Assembly (NCBI GenBank): GCA_035637095.1
Contig: DASPXX010000293.1
Location: 284-64,283 of the forward strand
Length of the DNA stretch: 64,000 nt
DNA from: Thermoanaerobaculia bacterium
Lineage (GTDB): Bacteria > Acidobacteriota > Thermoanaerobaculia > Multivoradales > UBA5704
Reading direction: 5' to 3'
In this document: piece by piece, positions 8,201-54,158 of the stretch
Position numbering within the stretch: position 1 is the stretch's first letter
Layout: each line of letters begins with the position of its first letter
Made by a program: the position numbers and the translations under genes
The notes under the pieces: model-generated
What the model saw: only the letters and a program-made list of their open reading frames with translations
What the model was told of the DNA's origin: nothing
Database searches by the model: none

Positions 8201-8540
8201 CCGGATTGGCCTGGAAGACGGCGATCGCGCCGACCGACGCCACCTTCTGGCTGTCGAAGACCGGATCCCAGGTGAGCCCGCCGTTGACCGTCTTCCAGAC
8301 GCCGCCGTTGGCCGAGCCGACGTAGAGCACGTCGGGATTCGATTCGACGCCCACGACGTCGGAGACGCGGCCGCTCATCGCGGCCGGACCGATGGAGCGC
8401 GCCTTCAAGCCGGCGAAAAGGGACGGATCGATCGGGTCCGCCGCGAGCGGAGCGGTCGGGAGGAGGGGCAGGGCGAGCGCGAGCACGGATGCGGAGAGGA
8501 TGGCGGTTCGACGCATGCACCGTTTGATATCCCGGCGCAT
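5208..8540 (-). CDS. Secreted BNR/Asp-box repeat protein (sortilin/VPS10-like, glycosyl-hydrolase-like beta-propeller), 1110 aa
   Basis: N-terminal signal peptide (MRRDIKRCMRRTAILSASVLALALPLLPTAPLAA). At least 9 Asp-box motifs S/T-x-D-x-G-x-T-W (SLDGGRTW, TTDGGRTW, TDDGGETW, SEDGGRTW, TRDRGRTW, STDRGDTW, TRDGGKTW, TDDWGKTW, STDGGRRW). The long uninterrupted ORF is antisense to the spurious ORF 5754..9239. Confidence 0.85.
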   Translation of the reverse strand: MRRDIKRCMRRTAILSASVLALALPLLPTAPLAADPIDPSLFAGLKARSIGPAAMSGRVSDVVGVESNPDVLYVGSANGGVWKTVNGGLTWDPVFDSQKVASVGAIAVFQANPDVVWVGTGEDNPRNSVSVGWGVYRSLDGGRTWKHLGLEKTERISRIILHPTNPDVAWVAALGQLWGENADRGVFKTTDGGRTWRKVLYVDERTGAADLAMDPANPNKLFAALWEHRRRPWVFRSGGPGSGLHVTDDGGETWKRLTEDDGLPSGDLGRIGLAISRSNPEIVYALVEATKSALVRSEDGGRTWKTANDDPRTSNRPFYYSEIRVDPAWPNRVYNIATRLSVSNDSGKSFDEIDTKTHGDFHTMWIDPRDPSHLIAGDDGGLAITRDRGRTWYFPPNLPLGQYYHVNVDMEVPYNLYGGLQDNGTWRGPSEVQDDEGGIRNQHWMRIGGGDGFDAAPDPQDSQIGYSMSQGGALLRWNLHTGEIKEIQPPEPKPGDGHEPLRFNWSSGLALDPFEPGTLYYGSQYVHKSTDRGDTWTIASPDLTTDNSDWQKQSESGGLTPDVTAAESYTTILAIAPSPIERGVIWVGTDDGRVHVTRDGGKTWTSVEKNIPGVPANTWVPHIRPSRFDAASAFLVMDNHRREDWAPYVFRTDDWGKTWKSLATRDVDGWALSIEQDPVDRDLLFLGTEFGLYVSTDGGRRWMRWKHGLPTTAVADLAIHPRENDLVIATHGRGLYIVDDITPLRHLTPEVLREPLHLYPSTAGRLDRREIGNGNTRAGAGDFHGENRPYGVELTYSLNLPGLPLPEEEAERARKEEERAAARATAAKGPAKPGETLKEDPEATADTGAKGKDKDKGPRVEIRIEDASGKLVRKMDGPAQLGFNRATWDLGRDAFVAPPTDSRGRQREPRSGPKVPPGTYRVKVKYKDHVAEGTAQVVPSPLTKNTAGDWQAREAAFERIRTVQDSLGAATDRIAAARADLDLVQKKLDAADKARKDKSEEGEDPNRDLKKAAKGLRAKLDAAEKTLFVPPGTKGIVDDSGTAFTQIQDAGRSLESSWDPPNATQLSQLDRAEATAKTALAGVDRVWAEDVPAFRKLVEGAKIELLGPTP

Positions 8541-8593
8541 CGCCGGGTGTCAACTTGGGTCTTTGCGCTATCCTTCCGCGAGGAGGTCCGCAA

Positions 8594-9349
8594 ATGCGCC
8601 TGCACGTCCTCGGCAGCTCCGGGGGGTATTCCGTCCCCGACAACCCCTGTACCGGCTTCCTCCTCGAGCACGGGGAGGCGCGGCTGTGGATCGATGCGGG
8701 CACCGGCACGCTGGCCGCCGTGCAGCGAATTCTCCCCCTGGAGAGGATCGACGCGCTCGTCGTCTCGCACGTCCACGCCGACCACTGCGCCGACCTCTTC
8801 ACCGCCTACGTGGCCTTCCGCTTCCAGCTCGACGGCAAGCCGCTACGCAAGCCGCTCTGGGCGCCGCGCGAGGTCTGGGAGGTCGTGCCGCGCTTCCTCG
8901 ACCCCTCGGGCGCCGGAGTCCTCAAGCTGGAGGAGGCCTTCGAGTTCCATCCGCTGGAGGACGGCGCCGAGGCCGAGATCGCCGGAATCCGCTTCCGCTG
9001 TGAGCGCACCGATCATCCGGTCGAGACCCTGGCCTTGCGCGCCGAGGCGGACGGCGCCGTCCTCGCCTTCTCGGCCGACACGGGACCGGCGGCGGACCTC
9101 ACCGGGCTCGCCCGCGACGCCGACCTCTTCGTCTGCGAAGCCTGCTACCAGAACGCCGCCATGGGAGGCCCGGTCCACCTCTCCGCCCGGCAGGCCGCCG
9201 GCCTCGCCCGCCGCGCCGGAGTCCGCAAGCTCGCCCTGACCCACATCTGGCCGACCCTCGACCCCGAGGTCTCGCTCGACGAGGCCCGCGAAGCGGCGGG
9301 GGAGGTGCCGGTCGAGCTGGCGCGGCCGGGCGGGGTGTTCGAGATCTGA
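8594..9349 (+). CDS. MBL-fold metallo-hydrolase (RNase Z / ElaC-like)
   Basis: MRLHVLGSSGGYSVPDNPCTGFLLEHGEARLWIDAGTG...IDALVVSHVHADHCADL.. carries the HxHxDH metallo-beta-lactamase motif. SD gcGAGGAGGtccgcaaATG. The listed ORF starts 39 nt upstream at TTG. Confidence 0.8.
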   Translation: MRLHVLGSSGGYSVPDNPCTGFLLEHGEARLWIDAGTGTLAAVQRILPLERIDALVVSHVHADHCADLFTAYVAFRFQLDGKPLRKPLWAPREVWEVVPRFLDPSGAGVLKLEEAFEFHPLEDGAEAEIAGIRFRCERTDHPVETLALRAEADGAVLAFSADTGPAADLTGLARDADLFVCEACYQNAAMGGPVHLSARQAAGLARRAGVRKLALTHIWPTLDPEVSLDEAREAAGEVPVELARPGGVFEI

Positions 9350-39694: not shown

Positions 39695-42600
39695 ATGATC
39701 CGCACCACGCCGGCTGAAGCTCGCCGCCGATTTCCGATCGTGAACGCAGACCGCATCTCCTTTCGTGACGCGCTGGCGCGCGCCGCGGTCCCGCTCGCCG
39801 CCCTGGCGGCGATGGCCGCGCTCGCCTCGCGCGAGGTCGATCCCGTGGGGGCCGCCGAGACGGCGTATCTGGCGGTGCTGGCCACGGCGGGGCTGCTGGC
39901 CGTCGCCTTTCTGGCGCCGGCGCCGGCCTGGGAAGCGGGCGTGGGCGCCACCCTGGCTACCACGATCGTCTGGGCGCTCCCGCCCGGGCCGGGGCGGGGG
40001 GCGGCGGTTGTGTTGCTTCTTGTGGCGGCTCTGGCGGTTGCGGCGGGGCGGAGGTTCCCTCACCCCCGGCCCCTCTCCCGCGAGCGGGAGAGGGGTGAAC
40101 AGCAAGAGAATGTCTTTGCTTTGCTCCCCTCTCCCGCTCGCGGGAGAGGGGCCGGGGGTGAGGGCTTCTTGCTCCCGCTCTCCTTCGGCCTCCAGGTTCT
40201 CCTGCGCGGGAGCGAGCTGCTGTTTCAACCCCAGGTGAATCTGCGGACTCTGGTGGCACTTCTGGGACTCCCGGTGGCCGGGGCGGCCGCCACGGCGGTG
40301 CTGGCCCGGCGCTATGGGCCGGCCGCCCTGGCCGCGGCGGGTGCGGCCCTGTTGCTTGCACCAGGGTGGAACGTGGCGGCCACGGCCGGGCTGGTGGCTC
40401 TGGCTGCCGGCGACCTGATCGCCCGGTGGAGAGGGGCCATCCTGGCCACCGCCGTCCTGGCCGGCGCCTTCCTGCTGAGGCCAGGAGTGCCGGATCTCTC
40501 GATGGCGGCGGGTCTGCTGGCACTGGCGGTGCTGTACCTGGGGCGGAAGATCCTCGCCGTCACGGCGGTCGCCATCGCCGCCCTCCTCTTGACGACCGCC
40601 CTGCTCGCCTCCTATCCCTGGCTGCGCAGCGAGCCCCTCCAGGAAGCCCTCGGCCTCTTCGTTCACATCCCCACTCCCGGCACCTCCCTCCTCCCCCCTG
40701 CTACGGCGGTCGTCGTCGACGCGGCGCATCCATCCTGGAGAGTTGCGGTCACGGGGAAGAGCGTGGACACGGTGGTCCTCGACTCCAGCCTCTCGAACGG
40801 CGCCGGCTTGCCGAACGGCACGCCGGTCGCGACGGTGCACCTCCGCGGCGGGGACGGCAGGATCTACGGATGGGTCGTGCGGGCGGGGCAGGATACCGGC
40901 GAGTGGGCGGCGCGGCGGCCGGATGTGGCGGCGGCGAGCGTCCTCAAGTCGCCGCCGCCCTGGCTCTCCTGGGTGGCCGGCGGCTTCTTCGGCCAGCGGT
41001 ACCGGTCCCTCTGGAACGTCGACTCCCCCGGGTCCTTCACCGAGCTGTCCATCGAGCGCAATCCGGCCCTGCCGCCGCAGGTCAGCCTGGCGCTCCACGC
41101 GGTGGAGATCCGGAAGCCGTTTGCCGCCCGGCTGCTGCCCGCGGGCGATCCTTTCCGCGGCACGCTGGCGGTCCTGCCGCTGGTCCTCGCAGCGCTCTGG
41201 GCCATCGCGCGGTGGAGCGTACGCCGCGGCGCCGAGCCGCTCTCCCGCGCCGGCTCGGCCGGAGAGCTCGCGGCGCTGGCCGTCCTCGTCCTCTGCATCC
41301 TGGCCCGGCCGGGCCTCGGGCTCGCGTGGTCCGCGGAGGTCCTGGCCGCAGGGCTCGTCCTGGTGCTCGGGTTTCGCGCCGTCCGGCAGGTCCGGGCTCT
41401 GCGGCCTCTCCTCGGCGACCGGCTGCCGCGCCGCCCGTCGCTCGTCTTCTTCCTCCTGCCGCTCACCGTCTACGTGGCGATCCTCCCCTGGTCGACGGTC
41501 CACCGCCAACCGGACGGCGACGAGCCGTTCTATCTGCTGATCACCCACAGCCTGGCCTACGACTTCGACGCCGAGCTGACCAACAACTATGCGCACGGGG
41601 ACTGGCGGCACTTCATGGAGCGGCCGATCGAGCCGCAGGCCGGGGACCCGGTCGGACCGCACGGCGAGCTCTATTCGCGCCACAACGAGCTGCTCCCCCT
41701 GGCGCTGGTCCCGGCCTACCGCGTGGGGGGACGGATCGGCGCCCTCGGCATGATGGCGGCCTTCACGGCCCTCCTCGCCTGGCTGATGCTGCGCCTCGGC
41801 CGCCACTACGTTCCGGACCGGCCGGGCGAGGTCCTCTCCGCCTGGGCGCTGGCGGTGCTCGCTCCGCCGCTTCTCCTCTACTCCTACCAGGTCTGGGTGG
41901 AGGTGCCGGCGGCTCTCCTGATGCTGTTCGCCCTCGACCGCATCCTCGATCTCGACGGCCAGCGGCAGTGGACGGTCCGCCAATGGCTGGGGATCGGCCT
42001 GTCGATCCTGCTCCTGCCGCTCCTCAAGATGCGGTTCGTGCTCATCTCCGGGCCGCTCCTTGCGCTCGCCTGGTGGTATTCGGGACGGCCGCGCCGGCCG
42101 GTGTTCTTGCTGACCGCGGCGCTCGCCCTGCTCGGCGTGGGCATGCTCGCGTACAACCAGGCGGTCTACGGGAACCCGCTCAAGATCCACACCTGGGAAG
42201 AGGTGGACCCGCACCGCCACGACCTGCTCTCGTATTGGAAGGGCGGGCTCGGGCTGCTCTGGGATTCGGCGTTCGGCCTGTTCGGCTGCGCACCCATCTG
42301 GCTGATCGTCCTCCCTGCCGTGCTCCTCCTCCTCGCCCGCCGCCACCGGCTCCTGATCCACCTGGCAGTGCTGACCCTTCCTTATCTCCTGGTCGTGGTG
42401 CCGCGGATCGAGTGGTACGGCGGCTGGTCTCCCCCGTTCCGCTATGCGCTGATCGGGCTGCCGTTCCTCAGCCTGGCGCTGGCGCCTCTCCTGGAGCGGC
42501 GGGACGGTCCCGGGGCGCGGGCGCTCCTCGCCGGTCTCGGCACCTTGACCCTGGCCCTGGCGCTGCTCTGGCTGGTCATGCCGGGCTGGACCTACAACTT

Positions 42601-43258
42601 CGCGGACGGCCGGACCTACCTGCTCGACGCTCTCGGGCAGCGGCTGGGTCTGGACGTCGCCCGCTTCTTCCCCAGCTCCATCCGTCCCCGGCCCGCCACC
42701 TGGCTCTGGCCGCCACTCACCATCCTCTTCACCACGGTTCTCTGGTGGTTCCCCTTCCGGAGAGGGGGCCAGGGGGTAAGGGTCGCCGGGCTCGCCGGAG
42801 TCGCCGCCGTCCTGCTCCTCGCCGCGGCGGTCCCCCCGGCCGCCGCACGCCTGCCCACCACGGTCGCCGAGATCGAGGACCCGCAGGTGGCGAAGAGCGG
42901 TGGGCATCTCTATCCCGACCGCTGGATCATCGAGCGGGCTCGCCATCGCGGCGGCTGGGTGCTGCGGGTCGGCGAGCGGGTGAAGGTGCCGGTGAAGGCC
43001 GGGGGACGGCGGGTCTGCCTGGTGCTCCGGGGAGAGCTCGTCCAGAACCAGCTGGTGCCGTTCCGGCTCGACATACAGGCAGGCGACCGACTGCTGGCCG
43101 TCTGGGCTCCGGGCCGCGACCGCGCCTGGGATGCAGTGACGCTCGGCCCCTTCGACTGGCCGGCGGGCAAGCCCCTGGTGCTCTCCGCCTTCGGGCCGCA
43201 CCCGCCGGGAGAGCCCAACGGCATCGTGCTCGACCGGGTGGATTTCGCATGGGAGTGA
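39695..43258 (+). CDS. Large polytopic membrane protein, probable GT-C-type glycosyltransferase/EPS assembly protein (about 1187 aa); contains in-frame MITE copy b
   Basis: Start placed after the divergent serS start ([24 protein letters not shown].. or GTG about 39740). Many hydrophobic helices. Region ..[35 protein letters not shown].. resembles the first loop of GT-C (ArnT/PMT/YfhO-like) glycosyltransferases. Followed by five glycosyltransferase genes with overlapping junctions. The antisense ORF 39677..43201 is an artefact. Confidence 0.6.
40057..40164. mobile_element. MITE-like palindromic element, copy b (108 bp = 36 codons), inserted in-frame inside the membrane protein gene
   Basis: ccctcacccccggcccctctccc-gcgagc-gggagagggg-tgaacagcaagagaatgtctttgctttgct-cccctctccc-gctcgc-gggagaggggccgggggtgaggg. 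Same architecture as copy a with a shorter spacer. Translated as ..[41 protein letters not shown].. without a stop. Confidence 0.7.
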
Positions 43259-44118
43259 CCGTCTCCGCGGTCGTCCCCACCCTCGGCCGCAGCCCGTGGC
43301 TCGTCCCCTGCCTCGAAGCCCTGCGGCGAGACGGGGGGAAAAGCATCGAGGTGATCGTCGTCGATCAGGGGGAGTCGCCCGTGGAGCTGCCGGCCGGGCT
43401 GGCCGACCGGGTCCTGCGGCCGGAGCGGAACCTCGGCTTCGCCGGAGGGACGAACCTGGGGATCACGGCTGCGACGGCCGGGATGGTGGCCACGGTCAAC
43501 GACGACGCCCTGATCGAGCCGGGCTGGATCGCGGCGCTCACGGCGGCCCTGGAGAGCGATCCGCGCGCCGCGGCAGCCCAGGGAGTCACTCTTCTGATGG
43601 ATGATGAGGAACGGGCGGACGGCTGCGGCATCGCCTGGAACCGCTGGTGGCAGGCGGTCCAGATCGGCCACGGCCTGCCGGCGCCCTCGGAGTCAGAGCC
43701 GCCGCGGGAGATCTTCGGCGTCTCGGCCACGGCCGCCCTTTTCCGCCGCGCCGCCCTGGACGCCGTGGCGGTGGGCGGCAACGCCTTCGATCCGCGTCTG
43801 ATCTCCTACTATGAAGACGTCGAGCTGGCCGGGCGGCTGCGGGCGGCGGGCTGGCGTGCCCTGCTGGTGCCGGCCGCGCGCGCCCGCCATGCCGGCTCGA
43901 CCACGGGTGGAACGATGAGTCACGAGCGCTGGCGCCTGATCTACGGCAACCGTTGGCTGGTGGCCTCGCGCTTCCTGGGCGGAGGGTTCTGGCCGCGGGT
44001 GCCCTGGATGCTCTTGCGGGATGTCGTCGATCTGGCCCGGTCGGGCGGTCGGGGGGACTGGGCGCGGGCCTCCGGGATCGCGGCCGGCTGGGCGCGGGCG
44101 GTCCGCGGTCTCTCATGA
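43249..44118 (+). CDS. Family 2 glycosyltransferase
   Basis: [43 protein letters not shown]...NLGFAGGTNLGI.. is the GT2 (GT-A) N-terminal signature. Start overlaps the upstream stop by 10 nt. Stop overlaps the next start (ATGA). Confidence 0.8.
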   Translation: MGVTVSAVVPTLGRSPWLVPCLEALRRDGGKSIEVIVVDQGESPVELPAGLADRVLRPERNLGFAGGTNLGITAATAGMVATVNDDALIEPGWIAALTAALESDPRAAAAQGVTLLMDDEERADGCGIAWNRWWQAVQIGHGLPAPSESEPPREIFGVSATAALFRRAALDAVAVGGNAFDPRLISYYEDVELAGRLRAAGWRALLVPAARARHAGSTTGGTMSHERWRLIYGNRWLVASRFLGGGFWPRVPWMLLRDVVDLARSGGRGDWARASGIAAGWARAVRGLS

Positions 44119-45002
44119 ATCCCCTCCTCACCGGCATCGTCGTGCACTGGCACAACGAAGAGGCCCTCGCGGCGCTGACCGCGGCCTGGCCGAGCGACCC
44201 GCGTTTCGAGCTGTTGGTGGTGGACAACGGCTCGTCCCTCCAGCCCGGCCGCAATCTGGGGTTCGCAGGAGGGGCGAACGCCGGGATCGCGAAGGCGAAG
44301 GCGCCGATCGTCCTGCTGCTGAACCCCGATGCGGCCCCCGAGGAGGGAGCCCTGGAGCGGCTCCTCGAAGGGTTCGCGACCTTCCCCGACGCCGCGGGGC
44401 TCGCACCGCGGTTGACCGGGCCGGAGGGAGAGCCGCAGTTCGCCTGGCAGCTCCGGCGGCTGCCCTCGCCGCTGGAGCTCCTCCTCCACACCCTGCCGCT
44501 CGGCGGCTCCCGGGGCGGACTGCGGACCGAGCCGCCTCCCGGCAGCCCGGTGGAGCAGCCGGCCGCCGCAGCCCTGGCGCTCCGGCGCTCGGCCGTCGAG
44601 CAGATCGGCGGGCTCGACGCCGGATTCTGGCCGGCCTGGTTCGAGGACGTGGATCTGGCGCGCCGGCTGGCGGCAGCCGGGCAGGTGTTGCGCTACTGGC
44701 CGGCGGCCTGCTTCCGCCACGGCCTGGGCAGCACGGTGCCTCACCTCGGCTATGGACCATTCCTCTGGATCTACGACCGCAACCTGGTGCGCTACCTGCG
44801 GAAGCACCACGGAGCGGGCTGGGCGCTCCTGGCGCAGGCGCTCCTCGTCCTCGGGATCGCGGTCCGCCTCCTGCTCCTGCCGCTCCGCCGGCCGCAGCGG
44901 GCCGCTTCGCGGCGCGAGGCGTTGAAGGGATTGTTGATGGTGCTGGGCGGAGTGTTGACGGGGTGGCGATGGCCGCGGCGGATGCTGGAGGCGGCGGCAT
45001 GA
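44115..45002 (+). CDS. Family 2 glycosyltransferase
   Basis: MNPLLTGIVVHWHNEEALAALTAAWPSDPRFELLVVDNGSS...NLGFAGGANAGI... ATGA overlaps at both ends. Confidence 0.8.
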   Translation: MNPLLTGIVVHWHNEEALAALTAAWPSDPRFELLVVDNGSSLQPGRNLGFAGGANAGIAKAKAPIVLLLNPDAAPEEGALERLLEGFATFPDAAGLAPRLTGPEGEPQFAWQLRRLPSPLELLLHTLPLGGSRGGLRTEPPPGSPVEQPAAAALALRRSAVEQIGGLDAGFWPAWFEDVDLARRLAAAGQVLRYWPAACFRHGLGSTVPHLGYGPFLWIYDRNLVRYLRKHHGAGWALLAQALLVLGIAVRLLLLPLRRPQRAASRREALKGLLMVLGGVLTGWRWPRRMLEAAA

Positions 45003-45964
45003 ACGTGGCCGTCTGCATCGTCACCCACAACTCCGCCGCCGACCTCCCTGGCTGTCTGGAGGCGGTGGGGCGGTTGGAGCACCGGCCGCTGGAGGTCGTG
45101 GTGGTGGACTGCGCCAGCGCGGACGGCAGCCTCGACGTGGCGCGGCGCCATGCCCCGCCGGGCCTCCCCTTCCAGGCCGTCGATCTCGGCGAGAACCGCG
45201 GCTTCACGGGCGGGATGAACGCTGCCCTGGCCACTTCGAGCTCCGACTGGGTGCTGACCCTCAACGCCGACGCCCGGCCCGCTCCGGACTACGTCACCCG
45301 CCTCCTCGCCCGCGCGGAGGCCCATCCGGACCTGCGGACCGGCGCCGTCACCGGCCGGCTCGTCCGTCCCGACGGGCGCCTCGACGCCTGCGGCATGCGC
45401 CTGACACGCACCTGGCGCCACCTGGACCGCGGCTCGGGGGAGCCGGACCACGGCCAGTACATGATCCCCGAGCGGGTCTTCGGCGCCTCGGGTGCGGCCT
45501 CGCTCTTCCGCCGCGCAGCCCTGGAGGACGCCGCCGTGGACGGCGAGGTGTTCGATGCCCGGTTCCACTCGTTCCGCGAGGACGCCGAGCTCTGCTTCCG
45601 CCTGCGCGAGCGCGGCTGGGAGATCCTTTACGAGCCCGCGGCGGTCGCCGAGCACCGCCGGTTCAACCTGCCGGAGCGGCGGTCCTCGATGCCTGCGATC
45701 GTCAACTATCACTCCCTGAAGAACCGCTACCTCCTGCGGCTCTACCACCAGACCGCCGGCAACTTCGTCCGCACCCTGCTGCCGGCGCTCCTCCGCGACC
45801 TGATGGCCCTCGCCTGGGTGCTGCTCTTCGAGCGCAGCTCGCTCCCCGCCTATACCTGGCTCTGGAAGCACCGCCGCGAGATCCTGCGCCGCCGCCGCCT
45901 TATCCAGGGGCGCCGCACAGCCACCCTCGACCGCTGGTTCTCCTCCGCGGGAGACCCCCTGTGA
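44999..45964 (+). CDS. Family 2 glycosyltransferase
   Basis: MNVAVCIVTHNSAADLPGCLEAVGRLEHRPLEVVVVDCASADGS...NRGFTGGMNAAL.. DxD-type GT2 core. Stop overlaps the GT4 start (GTGA). Confidence 0.8.
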   Translation: MNVAVCIVTHNSAADLPGCLEAVGRLEHRPLEVVVVDCASADGSLDVARRHAPPGLPFQAVDLGENRGFTGGMNAALATSSSDWVLTLNADARPAPDYVTRLLARAEAHPDLRTGAVTGRLVRPDGRLDACGMRLTRTWRHLDRGSGEPDHGQYMIPERVFGASGAASLFRRAALEDAAVDGEVFDARFHSFREDAELCFRLRERGWEILYEPAAVAEHRRFNLPERRSSMPAIVNYHSLKNRYLLRLYHQTAGNFVRTLLPALLRDLMALAWVLLFERSSLPAYTWLWKHRREILRRRRLIQGRRTATLDRWFSSAGDPL

Positions 45965-47079
45965 CCCGGTCCTTGCACGTCGCCCTGATGGGCAGCCGCG
46001 GCATCCCCGGCCGCTATGGCGGCTACGAGACCCTGATGGAGGAGCTGGCGCCCCGGCTGATCGCGCGCGGCTTTCGGGTGACCGTCTACTGCCGGTCCCA
46101 CGTCACGCCGCCGGGGCTCACGCGATGGCGGGGCGCCGAGCTGATCGTGCTGCCGACGATCCGCACCAAGTACCTGGACACGCCGGTCCACACCTTCCTC
46201 TCCTGCCTGCGCGCCCTGCGCGAGCCGTACGACGCCGCGCTGGTGGTCAACTCGGCGAACGCCCTGTTCGTGCCGATCCTGCGCCTCTCGGGTGTGCCGG
46301 TGGCGCTCCACGTGGACGGGATCGAGAAGCGGCGCGCGAAGTGGGGTCCGGTGGGGCGCGGCGTCTACGCCGCCTCGGAACGGCTCGCCTGCGTCGTCCC
46401 CGACGCCCTGGTGACCGACGCCGAGGTCATCCGCCGTCATTACCTGGAGCGCTACGGCGCCGAGTCGGTGCCCATCGCCTACGGGGTCGACCCGCGTCCG
46501 CCGCGCGAGACCGGGGTGCTGGCGCGGCTGGGCCTCAGTCCCAGGTGCTACTTCCTCTACGTCAGCCGCTTCGAGCCGGAGAACAACCCGCACCGGGTGG
46601 CGGCGGCGTACCGGTCGGTCGGCGGCGACCTGCCGCTGGTCATGGTGGGCGGCGCGCCCTATGCGAGCGCCTTCATCGCCGGCTTCACGCGCGGCGCCGA
46701 CCCGCGCATCCTCCTCCCCGGGCCGATCTACGGGGAGGGGTACCGGGAGCTCCTCTCCCACGCCCTGGCCTATGTCCATGCCACGGACGTAGGCGGTACG
46801 CACCCGGCGCTCGTAGAAGCTATGGGCTACGGAAACTGCGTGCTGGTCAACGAGACGCCCGAGAACCGCGAGGTGGCTGGAGAGGCGGCGCTGTATTTCG
46901 ACGCCGCGGCTCCGGAGACCCTGGCGGAGCGATTGGAGGAGGTGCGGCGGGAGCCGGAGCAGGCCGCGGACATCGGCCGGCTCATGGCCCGGCGGGCCGC
47001 CCTCCTCTATGACTGGGAACACGTCGCCGACCGGTACGCCCGGCTGTTCCAGCGCCTCGCCGGCCGCAGCCCTGGCTGA
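45961..47079 (+). CDS. Family 4 (GT-B) glycosyltransferase
   Basis: MTRSLHVALMGSRGIPGRYGGYETLMEELAPRLIARGFRVTVYCR.. C-terminal ..HATDVGGTHPALVEAMGYGNCVLVNETPENREV.. is the GT4 E-x7-E region. Confidence 0.85.
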   Translation: MTRSLHVALMGSRGIPGRYGGYETLMEELAPRLIARGFRVTVYCRSHVTPPGLTRWRGAELIVLPTIRTKYLDTPVHTFLSCLRALREPYDAALVVNSANALFVPILRLSGVPVALHVDGIEKRRAKWGPVGRGVYAASERLACVVPDALVTDAEVIRRHYLERYGAESVPIAYGVDPRPPRETGVLARLGLSPRCYFLYVSRFEPENNPHRVAAAYRSVGGDLPLVMVGGAPYASAFIAGFTRGADPRILLPGPIYGEGYRELLSHALAYVHATDVGGTHPALVEAMGYGNCVLVNETPENREVAGEAALYFDAAAPETLAERLEEVRREPEQAADIGRLMARRAALLYDWEHVADRYARLFQRLAGRSPG

Positions 47080-47149
47080 AAAAGTGTGGGATTCGCGATA
47101 GAATCATCACGTTGCGACGAGGCGGAATTTAGACGATCGAACCGCATCC

Positions 47150-48604
47150 ATGCTGAAAGAACGAGCCCGTACCCTTGCCGTCTCCATCTTCCTGCTCGAT
47201 CTGACTCTGGTGGCCGCGGCGTTTCTGGCCGCCTACGGAGTCCGCGATTTCCTGCTTCCCCGCGTCGCTTCGGGGACCTTCCCCAGCCGGCTCTATGCGC
47301 TGGGCGACTATCTGCCGCTCTTGCCGCTCGCGCTGGTGATCTGGGGGACGCTGCTCCTCCTCTCCGGCCGCTACCGGTCGCACCGCACGGTGCCGCTGCT
47401 CGACGAGGCCTGGGCGATCATCCGCGTCTGCTTCATCGGCGCCGCGGTCTTCACGCTCCTCCTCTACGCGGCGCGCATCGACGAGCAGCTCCTGGGCGAC
47501 GATCGCATCAGCCGGTTCTGGATCCTGCTGTTCGCCATCTTCTCGTGCGTCTTCCTGCTCTCCGAGAAGATCGGCCTGCGCGTCACCTCCCGCTGGGTGC
47601 GGATGCGCGGCTTCAACTACCGCACGGTGCTGATCGTGGGCACGGGCCCCACCGCCCTCGCGATCGCCGACTCGATCCAGAGCCACCGCTTCTGGGGCTA
47701 CCGCATCCTCGGCTTCATCGCCAACGGCCAGGGGATCTCGCCGGGTTTCCCGAGGAGCTGGCCGGTCCTCGGCGAGGTGGACGACATCCCGCGGATCGTC
47801 GAGAGCAACGTGGTGGACGACGTGATCTTCGCCGTCCACCGCCGCGAGCTCGACCGCCTGGAGGACCTCTTCTTGAGCCTCCAGGAGCAGGGGATCCGCA
47901 CCCGGCTCGCGCTCGACCTCTTCCCTCACACGCGGGCCCAGGTGCAGCTGGAGGAACTGGACGGCATGCCGCTCCTCTCCTTCGCCACGGCTCCCTCCAG
48001 CCACATCCAGCTCCTGGCCAAGCGCACCGTGGACGTCGCGGTGGCCTCGTTCCTGCTCCTCCTCGGCCTGCCGGTGGTGCTGATGGTCGCCGTGGCGGTC
48101 AAGCTGAGCTCGGGGGGGAGCGTCCTCTTCCGCCAGACCCGCTGCGGCCTGAACGGGCGCTCCTTCACCCTCTACAAGTTCCGCACGATGGTCGAGGACG
48201 CCGAGGAGCGCCGCCGCGAGCTGCTGCATCTCAACGAGATGAACGGGCCGGTGTTCAAGCTGAAGGCCGATCCGCGGGTGACCTCGCTGGGCCGGTTCCT
48301 GCGCCGCTTCAGCCTCGACGAGCTGCCGCAGCTCTGGAACGTGCTGCGCGGCGACATGAGCCTGGTGGGGCCGCGCCCGCCGATCCCGGAAGAGGTGGCC
48401 AAGTACGAGCGCTGGCAGCGGCGCCGCCTGGCGATGAAGCCCGGCCTGACCTGCCTCTGGCAGATCAGCGGCAGGAACGAGCTCGACTTCCACCGCTGGA
48501 TGGAGCTGGATCTGGAGTACATCGACTCCTGGACTCCGCTGCTCGATTTCAAGATCCTGCTGAAGACGATCCCCGCGGTGCTCTCCGGGCGCGGGGCGAG
48601 CTGA
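47150..48604 (+). CDS. Polyprenyl-phosphate hexose-1-phosphate transferase (WbaP/EpsB-type priming glycosyltransferase)
   Basis: Four N-terminal TM helices. C-terminal sugar-transferase domain ..LKRTVDVAVASFLLLLGLPVVLMVAVAVKLSSGGSVLFRQTRCGLNGRSFTLYKFRTM...LDELPQLWNVLRGDMSLVGPRP.. (bacterial sugar transferase signature). Confidence 0.9.
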   Translation: MLKERARTLAVSIFLLDLTLVAAAFLAAYGVRDFLLPRVASGTFPSRLYALGDYLPLLPLALVIWGTLLLLSGRYRSHRTVPLLDEAWAIIRVCFIGAAVFTLLLYAARIDEQLLGDDRISRFWILLFAIFSCVFLLSEKIGLRVTSRWVRMRGFNYRTVLIVGTGPTALAIADSIQSHRFWGYRILGFIANGQGISPGFPRSWPVLGEVDDIPRIVESNVVDDVIFAVHRRELDRLEDLFLSLQEQGIRTRLALDLFPHTRAQVQLEELDGMPLLSFATAPSSHIQLLAKRTVDVAVASFLLLLGLPVVLMVAVAVKLSSGGSVLFRQTRCGLNGRSFTLYKFRTMVEDAEERRRELLHLNEMNGPVFKLKADPRVTSLGRFLRRFSLDELPQLWNVLRGDMSLVGPRPPIPEEVAKYERWQRRRLAMKPGLTCLWQISGRNELDFHRWMELDLEYIDSWTPLLDFKILLKTIPAVLSGRGAS

Positions 48605-48633
48605 GGAGAGGGGAGAGGGTTAGCTTCTCCGGC
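48604..48633. repeat. Partial copy (d) of the MITE-like element between convergent wbaP and peptidase genes
   Basis: gaggagaggggagagggttagcttctccgg matches the inner part of copy a (gggagaggggagagggttagaaggctccg). Confidence 0.45.
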
Positions 48634-49366
48634 CGCCCAGCAGACCGGAGCGGAACAGGAAGTAGAGCAGGGTCGTCAGGGTCGAGATCACCGCCGCCAC
48701 GTAGGTCAAGGCCGCGGCGTTCAGCACCCGGTCGATGCCTTCGCGCTCCTGCGCCATCACGATCCCGTTCTCCAGGACGAGGCGCTTGGCGCGCGCCGAG
48801 GCGTCGAGCTCCACCGGCAGCGTGACGATCTGGAACATCAGCACCAGCGAGAAGAGGGCCGCTCCGAAGAGCACGATCTGGGGCCCCATCGCGCTCCGCA
48901 TGTAGACCAGGAACAGGCCGAGCATCATCACCAGGTAGCCCACCGACGAGCCGATGTTGGCGGTGGGGACGAGCAGCGAGCGGAGCCACAGCGGTTTGTA
49001 GCCTTCCGCATGCTGGATCGCATGCCCCGCCTCGTGGCAGGCCACGCCCACCGCGGCCACCGAATTGGACGCATAGACCCCCTCGGACAGGGCGAGAGTC
49101 TTGTTCGCCGGGTTGTAGTGGTCGGTCAACTTCCCGTGCGTGGGGACGACCTGCACGTCGTAGATCCCCGCCCGGTCCAGCATGGCCTTGGCGGCCTGGG
49201 CGCCGGTCAGACCGCGCATGGTGCGCACCTGCGAATATTTGTTGAACGCCGACCGGGTCCGGAAGCTCGCCCAGAGGGAGAGCAGAAAGGCCGGCAGGAT
49301 GAACACGAAATATATCGGATCGAAGTGATAGAGCACGATCGAGCCTCCTTCGCTCTCTCGAAACAA
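48620..49366 (-). CDS. Membrane zinc metallopeptidase (YugP-like, HExxH)
   Basis: ..LALSEGVYASNSVAAVGVACHEAGHAIQHAEGYKPLWLRS.. has an HEaGH zinc motif in a membrane-embedded YugP-like protein. Multiple TM segments. Confidence 0.75.
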   Translation of the reverse strand: MFRESEGGSIVLYHFDPIYFVFILPAFLLSLWASFRTRSAFNKYSQVRTMRGLTGAQAAKAMLDRAGIYDVQVVPTHGKLTDHYNPANKTLALSEGVYASNSVAAVGVACHEAGHAIQHAEGYKPLWLRSLLVPTANIGSSVGYLVMMLGLFLVYMRSAMGPQIVLFGAALFSLVLMFQIVTLPVELDASARAKRLVLENGIVMAQEREGIDRVLNAAALTYVAAVISTLTTLLYFLFRSGLLGGRRS

Positions 49367-50182: not shown

Positions 50183-51499
50183 TCAGGAAACCACCATCGC
50201 CCGGGCGATGATGCGCGCGATCCCGGCCAGCTGCTCGGGCCGGACCTCTCCCTCTTCGAGAGCGCGGACGAGATCGTCGACCGCGGCGCGCACCCCTCCG
50301 GCCAGATCGCGGCTCTGGAAGGCGATGCGAATCTCGCCGCCGAGCGCGCGCAGATTGGCACCTCGCCCCTGGCGGAGGAAGAGCGCCGCCAGGTCGAGGC
50401 CGACGAGGATCGCATAGCCGGCGGCCCCGGAACGGTGGAAAGCGTTCCAGGCTTCGCGGAGGAGGACCTCGGCCTGGTGCTCGTGCCGGCTCAACGCGGC
50501 GAGCAACCCCTCGATGCGGACCAGCACGGCCCGGTCCACCGCGGTCCGCCGCCGGGCCGGCCGCTCGGCCAAGAGCGCAAGGATGCGGCGCCCCCGGAGG
50601 GGATCGCCCAGGGCGGCGAGACAGCCGGCGATCCCCCATCCGCCGCCGAGGGCGAGCCCGGCATCGACCGCCGCCGCTCCCAGGGCCAGAACGCGGTCGA
50701 ATACCGTCACCGCGGCGTCCCAGTCCTCCTGGTCCAGGAAGACGGCGGCGAGGTCGATGAGGGCCAGGGCCTGATCCCGCGTCTGGCCGGCGCCGCCGAA
50801 CAGGGCGGCGGCGCGCTCCAGGAGAGCCTTGGCCTCGTCGAAGCGCCGCTGATCGCGGCGCACCCGGGCAAGTGTGTGGCAATACTCGGCGCTCTCGAGC
50901 GGATCGATGCTCTTCTCGAGATGGGGGACCGCGCGCACCAGGGCCTCGTCGGCATCCTCCAGACGGCCCGCCCTTCGGCACGCCTCGCCGGCGGCACACC
51001 AGGCGCCGATGGCCAGCCCCGTCTCGACTCCCGTTCCGGACTCCCGCGCGGCGAGCTTCTGCGCGATGGAAGCAGCCAGGCGCGCCAGCGACTCGGCCTC
51101 GGTTGCGTCCGCCACCTGCCAGCTCCGCTCGAGCAGCTTCCAGGCGACGAAGACGGTGCGGAAGCGGTGACCCGCCGCGAGATGTGCATGCCGCTCCCCC
51201 AGCGGCAGAGCGAGCAGCTCGGCGACCAGGGGCTCGGCCCGCCGGCGGCCTTTCTCCACCTGTGCGGCGGTATGGCTCATCTTCTCGGCCATGCGGGCGA
51301 AAGCCCTCTCGTACCGTTCCGGCTCCGGCGCCGGCGACCGAGGCTCGCCCGGACGCCGGCGCACCGGCCGCGGGCTCAGCAGACCCCACCCCTGCCGGGA
51401 GCAGCGCGGGCATTCCAGCAGATGGAGCACCAGGCCCGCATCGGCGACGGTCAGGGTCTGCAGGAAGATGCGCAGAATCGATGGTTTCGGGTGGTTCAT
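50183..51499 (-). CDS. TPR-like regulatory protein with N-terminal Cys-x2-Cys motif (438 aa), paralog of 52560..53699
   Basis: From the internal ATG: MNHPKPSILRIFLQTLTVADAGLVLHLLECPRCSRQGW.. then helical-repeat body (..LEKSIDPLESAEYCHTLARVRRDQRRFDEAKALLERAAALF..). Its ATG overlaps the stop of the upstream XRE gene (ATGA). Confidence 0.55.
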   Translation of the reverse strand: MNHPKPSILRIFLQTLTVADAGLVLHLLECPRCSRQGWGLLSPRPVRRRPGEPRSPAPEPERYERAFARMAEKMSHTAAQVEKGRRRAEPLVAELLALPLGERHAHLAAGHRFRTVFVAWKLLERSWQVADATEAESLARLAASIAQKLAARESGTGVETGLAIGAWCAAGEACRRAGRLEDADEALVRAVPHLEKSIDPLESAEYCHTLARVRRDQRRFDEAKALLERAAALFGGAGQTRDQALALIDLAAVFLDQEDWDAAVTVFDRVLALGAAAVDAGLALGGGWGIAGCLAALGDPLRGRRILALLAERPARRRTAVDRAVLVRIEGLLAALSRHEHQAEVLLREAWNAFHRSGAAGYAILVGLDLAALFLRQGRGANLRALGGEIRIAFQSRDLAGGVRAAVDDLVRALEEGEVRPEQLAGIARIIARAMVVS

Positions 51500-51909
51500 T
51501 GGCGGGGCCCTCCTTCCCCTTCTTCTCCGGCCGGCAGCGACCTGCCGGCGTAACGGTGCGCCATGATCAGCCCGTCGAGAAACAGGACGAGCGAGTCGCG
51601 CTGGGGCTCGGGCAGCTGCTCCAGAGCCGGCAGGCGCTCCCGCAGGCGCAGATCGACGCCGGGGTTGCGCGGTCCGCGTCCGGTCAGGAGATAGTCGGCT
51701 GTGACGTTGAACGTCTCGGCGACCCGCACGAGCACGGACACTCGCGGCATCCAGCACCCCCTTTCCAGCTTGCTGACCTGTTGCAGGCTGCACCCGATCC
51801 GCGACGCGAGCTCTCTCTGCTTCCACCCCCGGCCGCGCCGCAGGCGGGCGATCCGCTCTCCGACCTGTTTGACGACTGGTTTCTCATTGTCCTGGTCATT
51901 GTCCTGCAC
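51496..51909 (-). CDS. XRE-family helix-turn-helix transcriptional regulator
   Basis: ..VGERIARLRRGRGWKQRELASRIGCSLQQVSKLERGCWMPRVSVLVRVAETFNVTADYLL.. is a classic Cro/C1-type HTH. Translationally coupled to the TPR-like gene. Confidence 0.75.
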   Translation of the reverse strand: MQDNDQDNEKPVVKQVGERIARLRRGRGWKQRELASRIGCSLQQVSKLERGCWMPRVSVLVRVAETFNVTADYLLTGRGPRNPGVDLRLRERLPALEQLPEPQRDSLVLFLDGLIMAHRYAGRSLPAGEEGEGGPRQ

Positions 51910-52205
51910 GCCCGTCCTCCTTTGTCATAACGAGGATCATTGTTCGCAACCGGAGGACATATGTCAACGTTCCGCCTCATTTCTCCCGATGAAGTTGTGG
52001 CTTCCGGGCTGCCGGAGCGGGGCGTGAGGACAATCGTCCTATGTCACCGCCGGCGCGGCGACGCCGCAGAAGGAGCCGGAGGGCCGTCCGATTGACATGT
52101 TCAGGCGATAAGTTGCGACAATAGGTCTCCTCGACCCTGATCGGGTTGCGCCGCGAGCTCCGGGGCCATGGAGGCTCCGGTCGTCCCGCGGCCGGGAGGA
52201 CAGAC

Positions 52206-52445
52206 ATGTTCCGCACTTTGTTCCGCCGTGGCATCCCCATCCTCGCCCTGGCCCTCCTTCTCGTCGGATCGGCCCCCGCCGCCGCCCAGTCGTCGGGCCC
52301 AGAGCGCTGGGATGGGCTCTGGGGATGGCTGGTGAGCCTCTGGAGTGACGGTGAGATCACCACAGGAGACCGGGGGCTCGGGGCCGATCCGGACGGCGAG
52401 ACGAGCGAGGGGGATCGCGGCCTCGAGCTCGACCCGAACGGTTGA
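52206..52445 (+). CDS. Small secreted protein with internal tandem repeat (79 aa)
   Basis: From the internal ATG: MFRTLFRRGIPILALALLLVGSAPAAAQSSGPERWDGLWGWLVSLWSDGEI-TTGDRGLGADPDGE-TSEGDRGLELDPNG*. Signal peptide plus two copies of a (T/S)x(G)DRGL(G/E)xDP(D/N)G unit. Confidence 0.45.
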   Translation: MFRTLFRRGIPILALALLLVGSAPAAAQSSGPERWDGLWGWLVSLWSDGEITTGDRGLGADPDGETSEGDRGLELDPNG

Positions 52446-52559
52446 TCCGCCGCGGCAAAGCAGGGGCGGGAGCTCGCTGCCCCTGCTTTTTCATGGCTCG
52501 ACATCCCGCGGAGTGTGAGAGAATATACCCACTTTCCTTTCCGAGGGAACACGAGAGCC

Positions 52560-53699
52560 ATGGACGAGCACCCGACACCACGGATTCTGAAGGACTTGCT
52601 TCTTCTGGAACGCGAGCGCGCCGAGGCGGACGCCAGGATCGACAAGCTCCTCAGCGGCGGAAAGATGGGGGACGAAGCCGAGCTCTGGACCTGGGGTCTG
52701 TGCGAAAGGCTCCAGGAGAGGAGCTGGGAGCTTCGGCAGAAGGACCCTGCGAAGATGGTCGACCTGGCGCAGCGTGCCGTCGAGGTCGCGAAAAGCATCG
52801 ATCCCCAAAAGTATGGACCCGAGCACGTGGAGGACCTGTCGGCCCGTGCCTGGGCAGGGCTTGCCAACGCCTACCGCATCGCCGACCAGCTCTCTCGCGC
52901 GGAGACGGCCTTCAGCAAGGCGTTCGAAGCCCGCCGGCGGGGGACCGGCTCACCGCTCCTCCAGGCTCGTTTGGCTGAGATCTCGGCTTCCCTTCTCTGC
53001 GATCAACGCCATTTCCCTGAGGCCTTCCGGCTCCTCGACTTCGCTCATCAGACCTATCTACGGCACCATGCTCTTCATGAGGCTGGACGTGCACTCATTC
53101 AGAAAGGCATCCACGCGGGACGAAGCGGCGATCCAGAAGATGGCATCCAGCTGATCGCCCGGGGGCTCCGCCTCATCGACCGAGCCCGCGATTCCAAGCT
53201 GGTCTTTCAATCTCTCCACAACATTCTTCTCTTTCGGGTCGAGCTCGGAGACTTCAAGTCCGCCCGGCGGCTGATTTTCGAGATGCGTCCCCTCTACGAA
53301 TTCCAGGGTGACCAAATCGCAAAGGTGAAGCTGCGCGGGATCGAGGGGAAGGTCTTCTTGGGCCTGGGCGAGATCGACCGCGCCATCCGGGCCTTCCAGC
53401 AGGCCAAGGACGGGTTCCTGGGATTGGGCCTGGACTACGATGCGGCCCTCGTCTCCTTCGACCTCGCGGTGGTCTGGCTCGAGCAGGGCAAGAAGGAGGA
53501 GGTGCGCCGGCTCCTGCACGAGATGCTGGAGACCTTCCGTACCCGCTACATCGCCCGCGAAGCGATCGCCGCCCTCATCATGCTGCGCGATTCGGCCGAC
53601 GAAGGCGAGCTGACGACCGAAACCGTAGAGATGATCGGCGGGCTCTTCCGGGCCTTCAAGAAAAGGCCGAAGGAGCCCGACATCGGGGAGCCGGACTGA
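52560..53699 (+). CDS. TPR-like regulatory protein, paralog of 50183..51499
   Basis: MDEHPTPRILKDLLLLERERAEADARID...LQERSWELRQ...AKSIDPQKYGPEHVEDLSARAW.. parallels ..LLERSWQ.. and ..EKSIDPLESAEYCHTLARV.. of the other copy. All-helical repeat protein. Confidence 0.55.
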   Translation: MDEHPTPRILKDLLLLERERAEADARIDKLLSGGKMGDEAELWTWGLCERLQERSWELRQKDPAKMVDLAQRAVEVAKSIDPQKYGPEHVEDLSARAWAGLANAYRIADQLSRAETAFSKAFEARRRGTGSPLLQARLAEISASLLCDQRHFPEAFRLLDFAHQTYLRHHALHEAGRALIQKGIHAGRSGDPEDGIQLIARGLRLIDRARDSKLVFQSLHNILLFRVELGDFKSARRLIFEMRPLYEFQGDQIAKVKLRGIEGKVFLGLGEIDRAIRAFQQAKDGFLGLGLDYDAALVSFDLAVVWLEQGKKEEVRRLLHEMLETFRTRYIAREAIAALIMLRDSADEGELTTETVEMIGGLFRAFKKRPKEPDIGEPD

Positions 53700-53702
53700 T
53701 CC

Positions 53703-54158
53703 CTACCCGCTCTTCGGCGTCTCCGGCCCCGCGGTCTCGTCCGGATCGGACAGCCCCCGCCGCTTCAGCTCCTGGCGGACCGCCCGCAGCACGATCTCCT
53801 CGACCTGCTCGGCGGTGAGCGACACGGGCTCCTTCTTCTCGTCTTCCGCCTTCGGGGCTTCGGCCGCCTCCTTCAGCACCTTGTCCGGGTCGAGCCCGAG
53901 CGCCTTCAGGACCCAGCGCGAATCCTGCGGCGGTGAGACCTCGAAGAAGAAGCTCAGCGGATCGCGGTTCAGCTCCCGCGCCAGCCGGTAGACGTGCCAG
54001 ACTTTCAGCTCGATCCGTCCCCGGAACAGGCTCCCCAGATACCCCTGCCCCAGGCCCAGGCTCCGCTCGATGTCCCGGCGCGACCGCCGCGCGTCGTGGA
54101 TCGCCAGGTCGAGAAGGTCCAGCATTCTCTGAACCTCCATGTCTTCCAGAGGGCTCAT
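53703..54158 (-). CDS. XRE-like HTH domain protein
   Basis: ..DIERSLGLGQGYLGSLFRGRIELKVWHVYRLARELNRDPLSFF.. is an HTH-XRE-like N-terminal domain with a charged C-terminal tail. Convergent with the second TPR-like gene. Confidence 0.55.
   Translation of the reverse strand: MSPLEDMEVQRMLDLLDLAIHDARRSRRDIERSLGLGQGYLGSLFRGRIELKVWHVYRLARELNRDPLSFFFEVSPPQDSRWVLKALGLDPDKVLKEAAEAPKAEDEKKEPVSLTAEQVEEIVLRAVRQELKRRGLSDPDETAGPETPKSG

Follow-up and report, generated by a model that had tools for sequence, protein, structure and literature searches.

A predicted exported peptide and a TPR protein with an anti-sigma-like zinc finger form a conserved gene pair in Acidobacteriota

The DNA analysed here (the window) is a 64-kb stretch of a soil metagenome-assembled genome (MAG) from Thermoanaerobaculia (Acidobacteriota), with a G+C content of about 69%. 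The locus in question is an interval of five genes, in the order TPR1 (-), XRE1 (-), PEP (+), TPR2 (+) and HTH2 (-). An earlier note on this DNA had described two regulator modules, each made of an XRE-type HTH protein and a TPR-like protein, on either side of a small secreted-peptide gene, and had compared their logic with RRNPP-type peptide quorum sensing, split over separate polypeptides. As detailed below, the ancient core of the locus is smaller than that module and consists of PEP, which encodes a predicted exported peptide, together with a gene for a TPR protein that carries a ZAS-type zinc finger (ZAS-TPR). Related loci and proteins are designated by numbers with the prefixes L and P, respectively.

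TPR1 (50183-51499, minus strand) encodes 438 aa, with a ZAS-type zinc finger followed by TPR repeats. The N-terminal zf-HC2/ZAS anti-sigma-like domain (residues 1-45; 51365-51499, minus strand) was assigned with a family profile and contains the motif HLLECPRC (residues 26-33; 51401-51424, minus strand). XRE1 (51496-51909, minus strand; 137 aa) combines an XRE-family HTH domain with a conserved C-terminal helical tail, and its TGA stop codon overlaps the ATG of TPR1 as ATGA (51496-51499). PEP (52206-52445, plus strand) encodes a 79-aa pre-peptide, predicted to be exported. TPR2 (52560-53699, plus strand; 379 aa) begins 114 nt beyond the 3' end of PEP and is a variant from which the zinc-finger segment has been deleted in frame. 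HTH2 (53703-54158, minus strand; 151 aa) encodes a divergent XRE/Cro-cI-type HTH protein and is convergent with TPR2. Both TPR proteins matched Pfam TPR models (TPR_12/TPR_2, above cutoff), and no transmembrane segment was predicted in either. They are paralogs, as had been proposed, with 26% identity over 310 aa (E=3e-12).

The PEP start codon is preceded by a strong Shine-Dalgarno sequence, GGGAGGA. Residues 1-27 contain a basic n-region, a 19-aa hydrophobic core (Kyte-Doolittle value 2.01) and a cleavage site after AAA and before Q; on sequence inspection the same features (basic n-region, hydrophobic core, A-x-A motif) are kept in about 55 PEP homologs. PEP is therefore predicted to be exported by means of a Sec signal peptide cleaved by signal peptidase I. 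The signal peptide is followed by a Trp-rich amphipathic helix at residues 33-47 (RWDGLWGWLVSLW) and by two GDRGLxxDP(D/N)G units, namely GDRGLGADPDG (52365-52397, plus strand) and GDRGLELDPNG (52410-52442, plus strand), so that the C-terminus is exactly DPNG. The gene is under purifying selection, with a ratio of nonsynonymous to synonymous substitution rates (dN/dS) of 0.27-0.43. The description of a 79-aa protein with two repeat units is upheld, and its secretion is predicted from a signal peptide recognised by sequence.

Only 10 close homologs of PEP were recovered by a word-indexed search, and a peptide-alignment search of species genomes found nothing, its patterns being too specific to the clade of the window. 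The PEP-like proteins encoded beside TPR genes share an architecture of 79-124 aa: signal peptide, PAAA cleavage region, amphipathic helix and 1-5 copies of G-x-G-x-DP(N/D)G. Within this motif the DP[ND]G core is invariant and the flanking residues are clade-specific, with the classes GD[RC]G[LP][GE]xDP[ND]G (repeated), [KR]G[WFM]G[IVL]DPNG (single), EG[PA]G[FLY]DP[NWL]G and DKG[LMA]G[LV]DPNG. In the signal peptide, an n-region motif h-[HQR]-R-G-[IV] is kept across PEP clades; plain Sec signal peptides do not usually show such conservation. The PEP homolog of L039 (2272-2646) carries a five-fold tandem HRG(I/V)I repeat in its n-region. Five DP(N/D)G repeats occur in the PEP homolog of L073 (3456-3851) and in the second copy of L074 (5357-5692). 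A second PEP copy lies downstream of the TPR2 ortholog in L068 (2303-2539, besides HTH2) and in L074 (which has no HTH2 gene). Both repeat number and gene copy number of PEP are evolutionarily labile. No Pfam, NCBIfam, PADLOC or PHROGs entry matched PEP, and its reading as the precursor of a ribosomally synthesised and post-translationally modified peptide was judged unlikely, as no modifying enzyme is consistently linked.

For assessment of gene linkage, a TPR-family profile search was used, which gave 54 loci from species-representative genomes, all of them Thermoanaerobaculia, Holophagales or other Acidobacteriota MAGs. At 51 of these loci, from 44 assemblies, the upstream sequence was long enough, and at 50 of them the TPR gene was immediately preceded by a PEP-like open reading frame (ORF) on its own strand. 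The pair was also found beside family members only 28-31% identical to TPR1 (L069, L070 and L071), where the peptide motifs read KAGCEMDPDG, KRGGEIDPNG and GSSIDPHG-COOH, respectively. It occurs in at least seven genomic contexts: SDR/GlgP, LepA/DAO, nonribosomal peptide synthetase (NRPS)-M23/SecA, PRC, EPSP synthase, ECF sigma, Rce1-like and RHS. Two or three cassettes occur in each of nine genomes; between the cassettes of a genome the TPR proteins share 36-49% identity and the peptides fall into different motif classes (one genome, for example, combines GDCGLEIDPDG, KRGGGSDPNG and EGAGLDPWG). Such diverged cassettes match what would be expected of cognate, mutually insulated pairs. Because the pairing persists despite 28-31% identity, changed flanks and multiple copies, PEP and ZAS-TPR are probably a functional pair; their linkage is real, deeply conserved and goes far beyond synteny by descent. 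The peptide, HTH and TPR trio of the earlier note recurs in other genomes in part, in that PEP and TPR genes are together in 50 of 51 loci and the XRE1 and HTH2 genes are found in one clade only.

Proteins of the TPR family measure 379 aa (TPR2), 438 aa (TPR1) or 440-455 aa (most homologs). A database clustered at 90% contained more than 300 homologs of TPR2, which come almost exclusively from Thermoanaerobaculia or other Acidobacteriota, and most of them are 440-455 aa long and contain HLLxGCxxC. Alignment with the full-length relatives P0014 and P0016 showed that the TPR2 of the window has lost about 64 residues in frame. The missing segment carries HP...L..FLLGRL......V..HLL.GC..C in full-length relatives and is retained in TPR1 as HLLECPRC. 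The short form (375-385 aa) is common to about 20 relatives and is still well conserved; a role as decoy or as a sink for the ligand is possible. TPR1 has only about 35 close homologs, all in close relatives and every one on a contig with a TPR2 ortholog, and is a young, lineage-specific paralog, an extra copy. An exhaustive profile search (E<=1e-30) assigned 3,099 clusters at 50% identity to the family. As there is also no family-level Pfam or NCBIfam model for these proteins, the combination of a ZAS-type zinc finger and TPR repeats is a large, unnamed protein family.

The zinc-finger assignment was made with a profile of the first 58 residues from 47 diverse family members. This profile matched the solved anti-sigma domains of DdvA (3e-5), RslA (1.4e-4) and ChrR (3.9e-3), and Pfam zf-HC2 was matched by 27 of the 47 members (best 4.6e-6), single sequences staying under the Pfam gathering score. 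The candidate zinc ligands are H3, H26, C30 and C33 in TPR1, and H4, H29, C34 and C37 in P0014; these four positions are invariant or more than 90% conserved across the family, and they are spaced as in ChrR (H6, H31, C35, C38). Judged by these profile matches, the N-terminal domain of full-length family members is of the zf-HC2/ZAS anti-sigma type. HLLECPRC, which the earlier note had called zinc-ribbon-like, is present in TPR1 as described and belongs to this finger.

AlphaFold2 (AF2) models agree with a TPR-like fold. A full-length TPR2 ortholog (82% identical) was modelled as an all-helical TPR superhelix (pLDDT 87.9), and TPR1 residues 1-105 were modelled at a pLDDT of 85.1, with the zinc-finger motif at the junction of helices 2 and 3. 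The overall predicted architecture is three short helices and one long helix, followed by a TPR superhelix of about eight repeats. In Foldseek searches the top matches of the superhelix were LGN/Pins and designed consensus TPR proteins, and its likeness is to peptide-binding TPR domains such as theirs and that of KLC. RapF ranked 32nd (TM 0.44/0.51) and RapI 42nd; both matches were significant, but they stood behind LGN, the designed TPR proteins and OGT. The best PDB sequence match to a Rap protein had E=0.27. Membership of the NsdA family was rejected (partial matches of 36-38 bits against a cutoff of 75 bits). In P0134 (723 aa) and in P0242 (916 aa) a single polypeptide has two complete TPR modules, one after the other. 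A natural PEP-TPR fusion, which would have been a Rosetta-stone link, was also looked for and rejected: the longer family members have longer linkers or tandem TPR modules.

The XRE1 HTH domain is clear (Pfam HTH_19/31/3, E about 1e-12; NCBIfam RstR-like, 2e-19), with PDB profile matches to ImmR, 434 cI and SinR. Its C-terminal helical tail (D86...A117) is highly conserved and includes invariant residues; a reading of this tail (LPEPQRDSLVLFLDGL) as a mimic of sigma region 4 was rejected, since the single Sigma70_r4_2 match is absent from 5 of 6 orthologous tails. The ATGA overlap with TPR1 is kept in L004 and L068 and resembles the typical arrangement of regulator-antagonist pairs. HTH2 on its own gave a weak HTH_3 match (E=0.009), and 9 of its 11 orthologs match HTH_3 (best 1.7e-10); together with a family profile match to lambda cI (E=0.007), this identifies the family, by sequence comparison, as Cro/cI-type. 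The claim of two XRE-type HTH proteins, one coupled by ATGA and one convergent, is accordingly sustained directly for XRE1 and through orthologs for HTH2. XRE1 and HTH2 have no detectable similarity to each other. In L008, L010 and L073, too, HTH2 and TPR2 converge and their 3' ends abut or overlap.

The distribution of these genes is narrow. Divergent XRE1 and convergent HTH2 are limited to the clade with the repeated GD[RC]G motif, and cassettes of the largest clade are not accompanied by an HTH gene. Among members of the XRE-linked clade, L011, L012 and L073 have no XRE1, L074 has a frameshifted remnant of it, and L067 and L013 have lost it together with PEP. XRE1 is also absent from L066. 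The XRE proteins are thus accessory and confined to one clade. A search of PADLOC and PHROGs gave generic HTH matches for XRE1 and none for the TPR proteins or PEP, and an origin from a defence system or a phage was discarded. On the contig of L069, two XRE HTH proteins of about 485 aa are encoded (5873-7324 and 7830-9008, both minus strand) 2-4 kb from the PEP/ZAS-TPR cassette, and one of them also matches TPR, which is an RRNPP-like fused architecture.

In L070 (383-2295) the stop codon of a ZAS-TPR gene, whose product is 28% identical to TPR1, overlaps the start codon of an ECF sigma gene as GTGA; a separate, classical pair of an ECF sigma and a zf-HC2 anti-sigma lies 2 kb further on. The coupling in L070 fits the anti-sigma-like N-terminus of the TPR family. 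When the two L070 sigma proteins were used as tblastn queries, no match was obtained in the window or in 70 related loci, which is a weak negative, given two queries.

Cis-acting elements were located by footprinting across five close relatives and by a promoter scan. The XRE1-TPR1 operon has a predicted sigma-70-type promoter (51939-51967, minus strand; TTGACA-17-AACAAT, scoring 10/12 in the scan), which is conserved in five loci, and L008 and L010 have the same layout as TTGACA-17-AAGAAT. The predicted PEP promoter (52092-52122, plus strand) would consist of TTGACA (52092-52097) and an extended -10 element, TGcGACAAT (52114-52122); the block CGAYAAGTTGCGACAATAGG that contains it is conserved in close relatives, and related blocks occur in L008, L010 and L011. 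Between the divergent promoters lie two palindromes of the form GGACA-N2-TGTC(C/A): O1 (GGACATATGTCA, 51955-51966), which overlaps the -35 box of the XRE1 promoter, and O2 (GGACAATCGTCC, 52028-52039), 73 bp from O1. When one mismatch was allowed, these two were the sole matches to GGACANNTGTCC in the whole window, and both fall in the 296-bp divergent promoter region. O1 is conserved in all five close relatives, the L006 variant GACAATTGTC preserving the dyad, and O2 is the perfect GGACAATTGTCC in L005 and L006. The two palindromes are candidate operators for XRE1. The four TGTCA-containing strings that the earlier note had suggested as XRE operators do exist; two of them are not conserved, and each of the two conserved ones is a TTGACA -35 box, one in the XRE1 promoter and one in the divergent PEP promoter, with the candidate palindromes nearby.

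Downstream of PEP, an intrinsic terminator with an 11-nt loop (52460-52491, plus strand; GCAGGGGC...GCCCCTGC, then TTTTT) was missed by the automated terminator scan and was read from the sequence. Hairpins of -30 to -45 kcal/mol are present at this position across the XRE-linked clade. An 11-mer, TGTGAGAGAAT (52514-52524, plus strand), follows about 46 nt upstream of TPR2 and is probably an extended -10 promoter from which TPR2 itself is transcribed. In 27 of 55 loci this 11-mer, or one nearly identical to it, precedes the TPR start by 46-65 nt, also where the TPR proteins are only about 45% identical. It is unusually invariant, and the loci that carry it include L008, L021, L025, L030, L038, L040, L046, L054, L058 and L064.

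The 78 nt from the predicted transcription start to the PEP start codon (52128-52205, plus strand) form a conserved 5' leader with three helices and an invariant CAU in the apical loop. In the leader alignment 77% of cells are paired, against 36-46% in slid controls, and the covariation score is 0.275 against about 0.1, a value that none of 500 shuffles reached. A covariance model (R1) found the leader only upstream of PEP genes, including those of the held-out L003 (1069-1151), L018 (3492-3573), L035 (1-52) and L068 (4265-4344, minus strand), and only in the GD[RC]G and EG[PA]G clades. Rfam 15 gave no relevant leader match at E<=10 for window positions 51800-52700. The leader structure is provisional, because RNAalifold alone returned a weak consensus; the explicit pair count with controls was more informative. 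An upstream ATG (52168) was rejected as the PEP start or as an upstream ORF: its frame shifts between close relatives, for which reason the leader is taken to be non-coding, and the Shine-Dalgarno sequence precedes the downstream ATG.

Outside the cassette, the neighbouring genes in the window encode an SDR protein and a glucan phosphorylase (GlgP), and this SDR...GlgP neighbourhood is wholly syntenic among the closest relatives. Further upstream, an exopolysaccharide-type cluster with four glycosyltransferase genes (about 40000-48604) includes a Bac_transf priming transferase (47150-48604), and is followed by the gene of a Zn_peptidase_2 membrane peptidase (48620-49366). At other loci the cassette occasionally has neighbours that could have a part in processing or exporting the peptide, none of them consistently linked: an Rce1-like CPBP intramembrane protease, an M23 peptidase with SecA, and large NRPS genes (L071 2075-2905; L011 4441-5316 and 7390-10152; L074 6194-9335).

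The reading that we tentatively favour, with confidence short of an even call, is that of a ligand-receptor pair of the Rap/Phr kind, with an anti-sigma-like domain for its output. PEP would be a small Sec-exported pre-peptide, expressed from its own promoter with a structured leader and a terminator. The ZAS domain would sequester a transcription factor, which would be an ECF sigma in some lineages and, in the window, probably XRE1 (co-translated with TPR1) or possibly HTH2. The TPR superhelix would bind PEP, or a processed fragment of it with G-x-G-x-DP(N/D)G, and binding would switch the sequestration. XRE1 would bind the two palindromes between the divergent promoters, autoregulate, and set PEP expression. 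The gene structures, the domain identities, the conservation of the pair, the cis-elements and the operators as conserved dyads were observed as described; the binding of the peptide by the TPR domain, the partner of the ZAS domain, the re-entry of the peptide and the direction of regulation are steps that we infer.

Our confidence in the ligand-receptor pair is held down by the following, four of which count most: the import route, the conservation of the whole peptide, the invariant DPNG core and the short TPR2. No oligopeptide importer or dedicated protease is consistently linked to the cassette and the host has an outer membrane, so that the passage of a peptide from periplasm to cytoplasm is unexplained. 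In typical RRNPP propeptides, conservation is confined to the short mature peptide; here the whole mature PEP is conserved, including the Trp-rich helix, and so is the n-region of the signal peptide. DPNG is invariant across paralogous cassettes, which fits a role in specificity poorly. The TPR2 of the window is without the ZAS output domain, and at most cassettes no gene for a sigma factor or an XRE protein is adjacent. Structurally, the TPR domain resembles Rap proteins no more closely than it does TPR proteins in general. Finally, a Foldseek search of the isolated TPR1 N-terminal domain against PDB gave no significant match, so the ZAS assignment is one of sequence profiles.

Some of the same observations suit a different role for the peptide, in which PEP is not a signal but the product that is regulated, and the ZAS-TPR protein (with the XRE proteins in this clade) senses something else. 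The site of action of such a product would be outside the cytoplasm, where it might be a membrane-active or antimicrobial Trp-rich peptide, a component of the envelope or matrix that binds Ca2+, or an adhesin-like factor. The conservation of the entire mature peptide, with its Trp-rich helix and turn-forming DPNG repeats, suggests that the whole 50-80-aa protein is functional, and an own promoter, a structured leader and a strong terminator are what a highly expressed and tightly controlled output gene would have. No importer is linked, and regulators commonly adjoin their target genes. We nevertheless regard this as doubtful, as it does not explain why the two genes stay adjacent through divergence to 28% identity and through rearrangements while the DNA-binding partner is often missing nearby, nor why copies within a genome diversify in parallel; PEP also matches no known structural or antimicrobial peptide family.

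The model closest to the earlier note, a true split RRNPP receptor, appears unlikely. It would make XRE1 with TPR1, and HTH2 with TPR2, two-subunit receptors of the PlcR/NprR type that bind re-imported PEP and DNA. The ATGA coupling of XRE1 and TPR1, the conserved convergence of HTH2 and TPR2, the conserved C-terminal tail of XRE1 (a potential docking surface), the candidate operators between PEP and XRE1 and the presence of the RRNPP signature features all agree with it. They are outweighed by the gene content of the relatives: most cassettes lack the XRE genes, which also decay independently, TPR1 as a paralog is young and occurs in close relatives only, and the TPR protein has a ZAS-type domain of its own, which one relative pairs with an ECF sigma. 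There is moreover no specific homology to RRNPP receptors. The notion of HTH and TPR functions divided between two polypeptides finds no support in the form first given, the XRE proteins being limited to one clade, the output domain lying on the TPR protein, the TPR gene being coupled to an ECF sigma in one distant relative, and the TPR fold being generic (RapF 32nd).

Still less probable, in our judgement, is an intracellular monitor of export, in which the TPR protein would bind unexported pre-peptide, the signal peptide or a released fragment, and would convey the status of secretion or of the envelope to transcription without re-import. This would remove the import problem, and it draws on the n-region motif that is conserved across clades and tandemly expanded in L039 and on the one cassette that lies directly upstream of secA. 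Enterococcal pheromones, which derive from signal peptides, are a precedent for ligands of this kind. The conserved and repeated C-terminal DPNG motif is left unexplained, the adjacency to secA was seen once, and nothing in the sequences speaks for a monitor directly. Least probable by far is the absence of any functional connection, with neighbours kept by shared descent, as the SDR...GlgP synteny of the closest relatives might suggest; it is strongly disfavoured, since the pair persists at 28-31% identity, its flanks differ in at least seven ways and the two genes are duplicated together within genomes.

The ligand-receptor pair was compared with three groups of known systems. Rap-Phr and other RRNPP(A) systems (Rap, NprR, PlcR, PrgX, Rgg and AimR, of Bacillota and phages) resemble the cassette in that a small propeptide gene, of the Sec type by prediction in the cassette, adjoins the gene of a cytoplasmic TPR protein of 250-500 aa, several diverged cassettes occur per genome and the pheromone motif is tandemly duplicated. 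The cassette displays all five features of a computational RRNPP signature (PMC10075063), among them a propeptide in the 10-100 aa range next to the receptor gene and a cytoplasmic TPR protein in the 250-500 aa range; the tandem duplication in Phr pheromone propeptides (PMC11343458) parallels the variable repeat number of PEP. Rap proteins, like the TPR protein of the cassette, have no DNA-binding domain, and the latter would act by sequestering a regulator. In contrast to RRNPP(A), the cassette is found in Acidobacteriota, which are diderm, and its output domain is a ZAS-type zinc finger and not an HTH domain or the three-helix bundle of Rap. The peptide gene comes first, the genes have separate promoters with a terminator between them, the mature region is 50-80 aa long and conserved throughout, and no Opp importer is linked. 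There is no specific relationship in sequence or fold beyond generic TPR. Because of the different output domain, the lack of specific homology and the diderm phylum, the cassette is not a member of RRNPP. The RRNPP-type logic of the earlier note therefore survives in one half, the deep link of a predicted exported peptide and a TPR protein (50 of 51 loci, with the five-point signature), and not in the other, membership of the family.

ZAS anti-sigma factors (RsrA, ChrR, RslA and DdvA) share with the TPR family the N-terminal H...H-x3/4-C-x2-C arrangement and the matches to the profile and to zf-HC2. Their ECF sigma is co-transcribed, which in the TPR family was seen only in L070, as tblastn with two queries gave no match in the window or the other loci; the co-translated partner in the window is instead an XRE protein, and the sensor is a cytoplasmic TPR superhelix accompanied by an exported-peptide gene. 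In the ECF classification (PMC7826278), soluble anti-sigma factors occur in only 10 groups, none of them of ZAS-TPR design. SinR/SinI and phage repressors of the cI/RstR type resemble XRE1 in having an HTH domain with a C-terminal helical tail (profile matches to SinR, 434 cI and ImmR), in being co-expressed with a partner that does not bind DNA, and in having palindromic candidate operators over their own promoter. Unlike SinI or RstC, the putative antagonist of XRE1 is not a small protein but a 438-aa ZAS-TPR protein.

No entry for PEP, for the ZAS-TPR family as such or for the leader was found in Pfam, NCBIfam, PADLOC, PHROGs or Rfam, and no description of a PEP/ZAS-TPR system was found in the papers searched on RRNPP in Acidobacteria, on zf-HC2 with TPR, or on anti-sigma domains with TPR and a secreted peptide. 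A peptide with a cytoplasmic TPR partner is of a known kind; what is new is the anti-sigma-type output architecture and the phylogenetic home.

Acidobacteriota are among the most abundant soil bacteria. Peptide quorum sensing through a cytoplasmic receptor is regarded as peculiar to Gram-positive Bacillota and their phages. To our knowledge, almost nothing is known of signalling in Acidobacteriota, and we know of no peptide signalling in the phylum. The boldest interpretation, which we consider possible but by no means probable, is that the cassette is the founding peptide-pheromone system outside Bacillota. A DPNG-repeat peptide and its TPR receptor, with a ZAS domain that releases an ECF sigma or an XRE regulator, would then be a hybrid of RRNPP quorum sensing and sigma/anti-sigma control, distributed widely among soil Acidobacteriota (Thermoanaerobaculia and Holophagae), with several mutually insulated copies per genome. 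On the conservative reading, the locus still provides a new family of exported peptides that has a dedicated regulator, together with a new candidate for a cis-regulatory leader RNA and with operators that can be tested. If PEP and ZAS-TPR are a true ligand-receptor pair, a diderm phylum would join those with peptide signalling, a new mode of gating sigma or XRE regulators would be defined, and a large unnamed family of about 3,100 clusters would gain a function.

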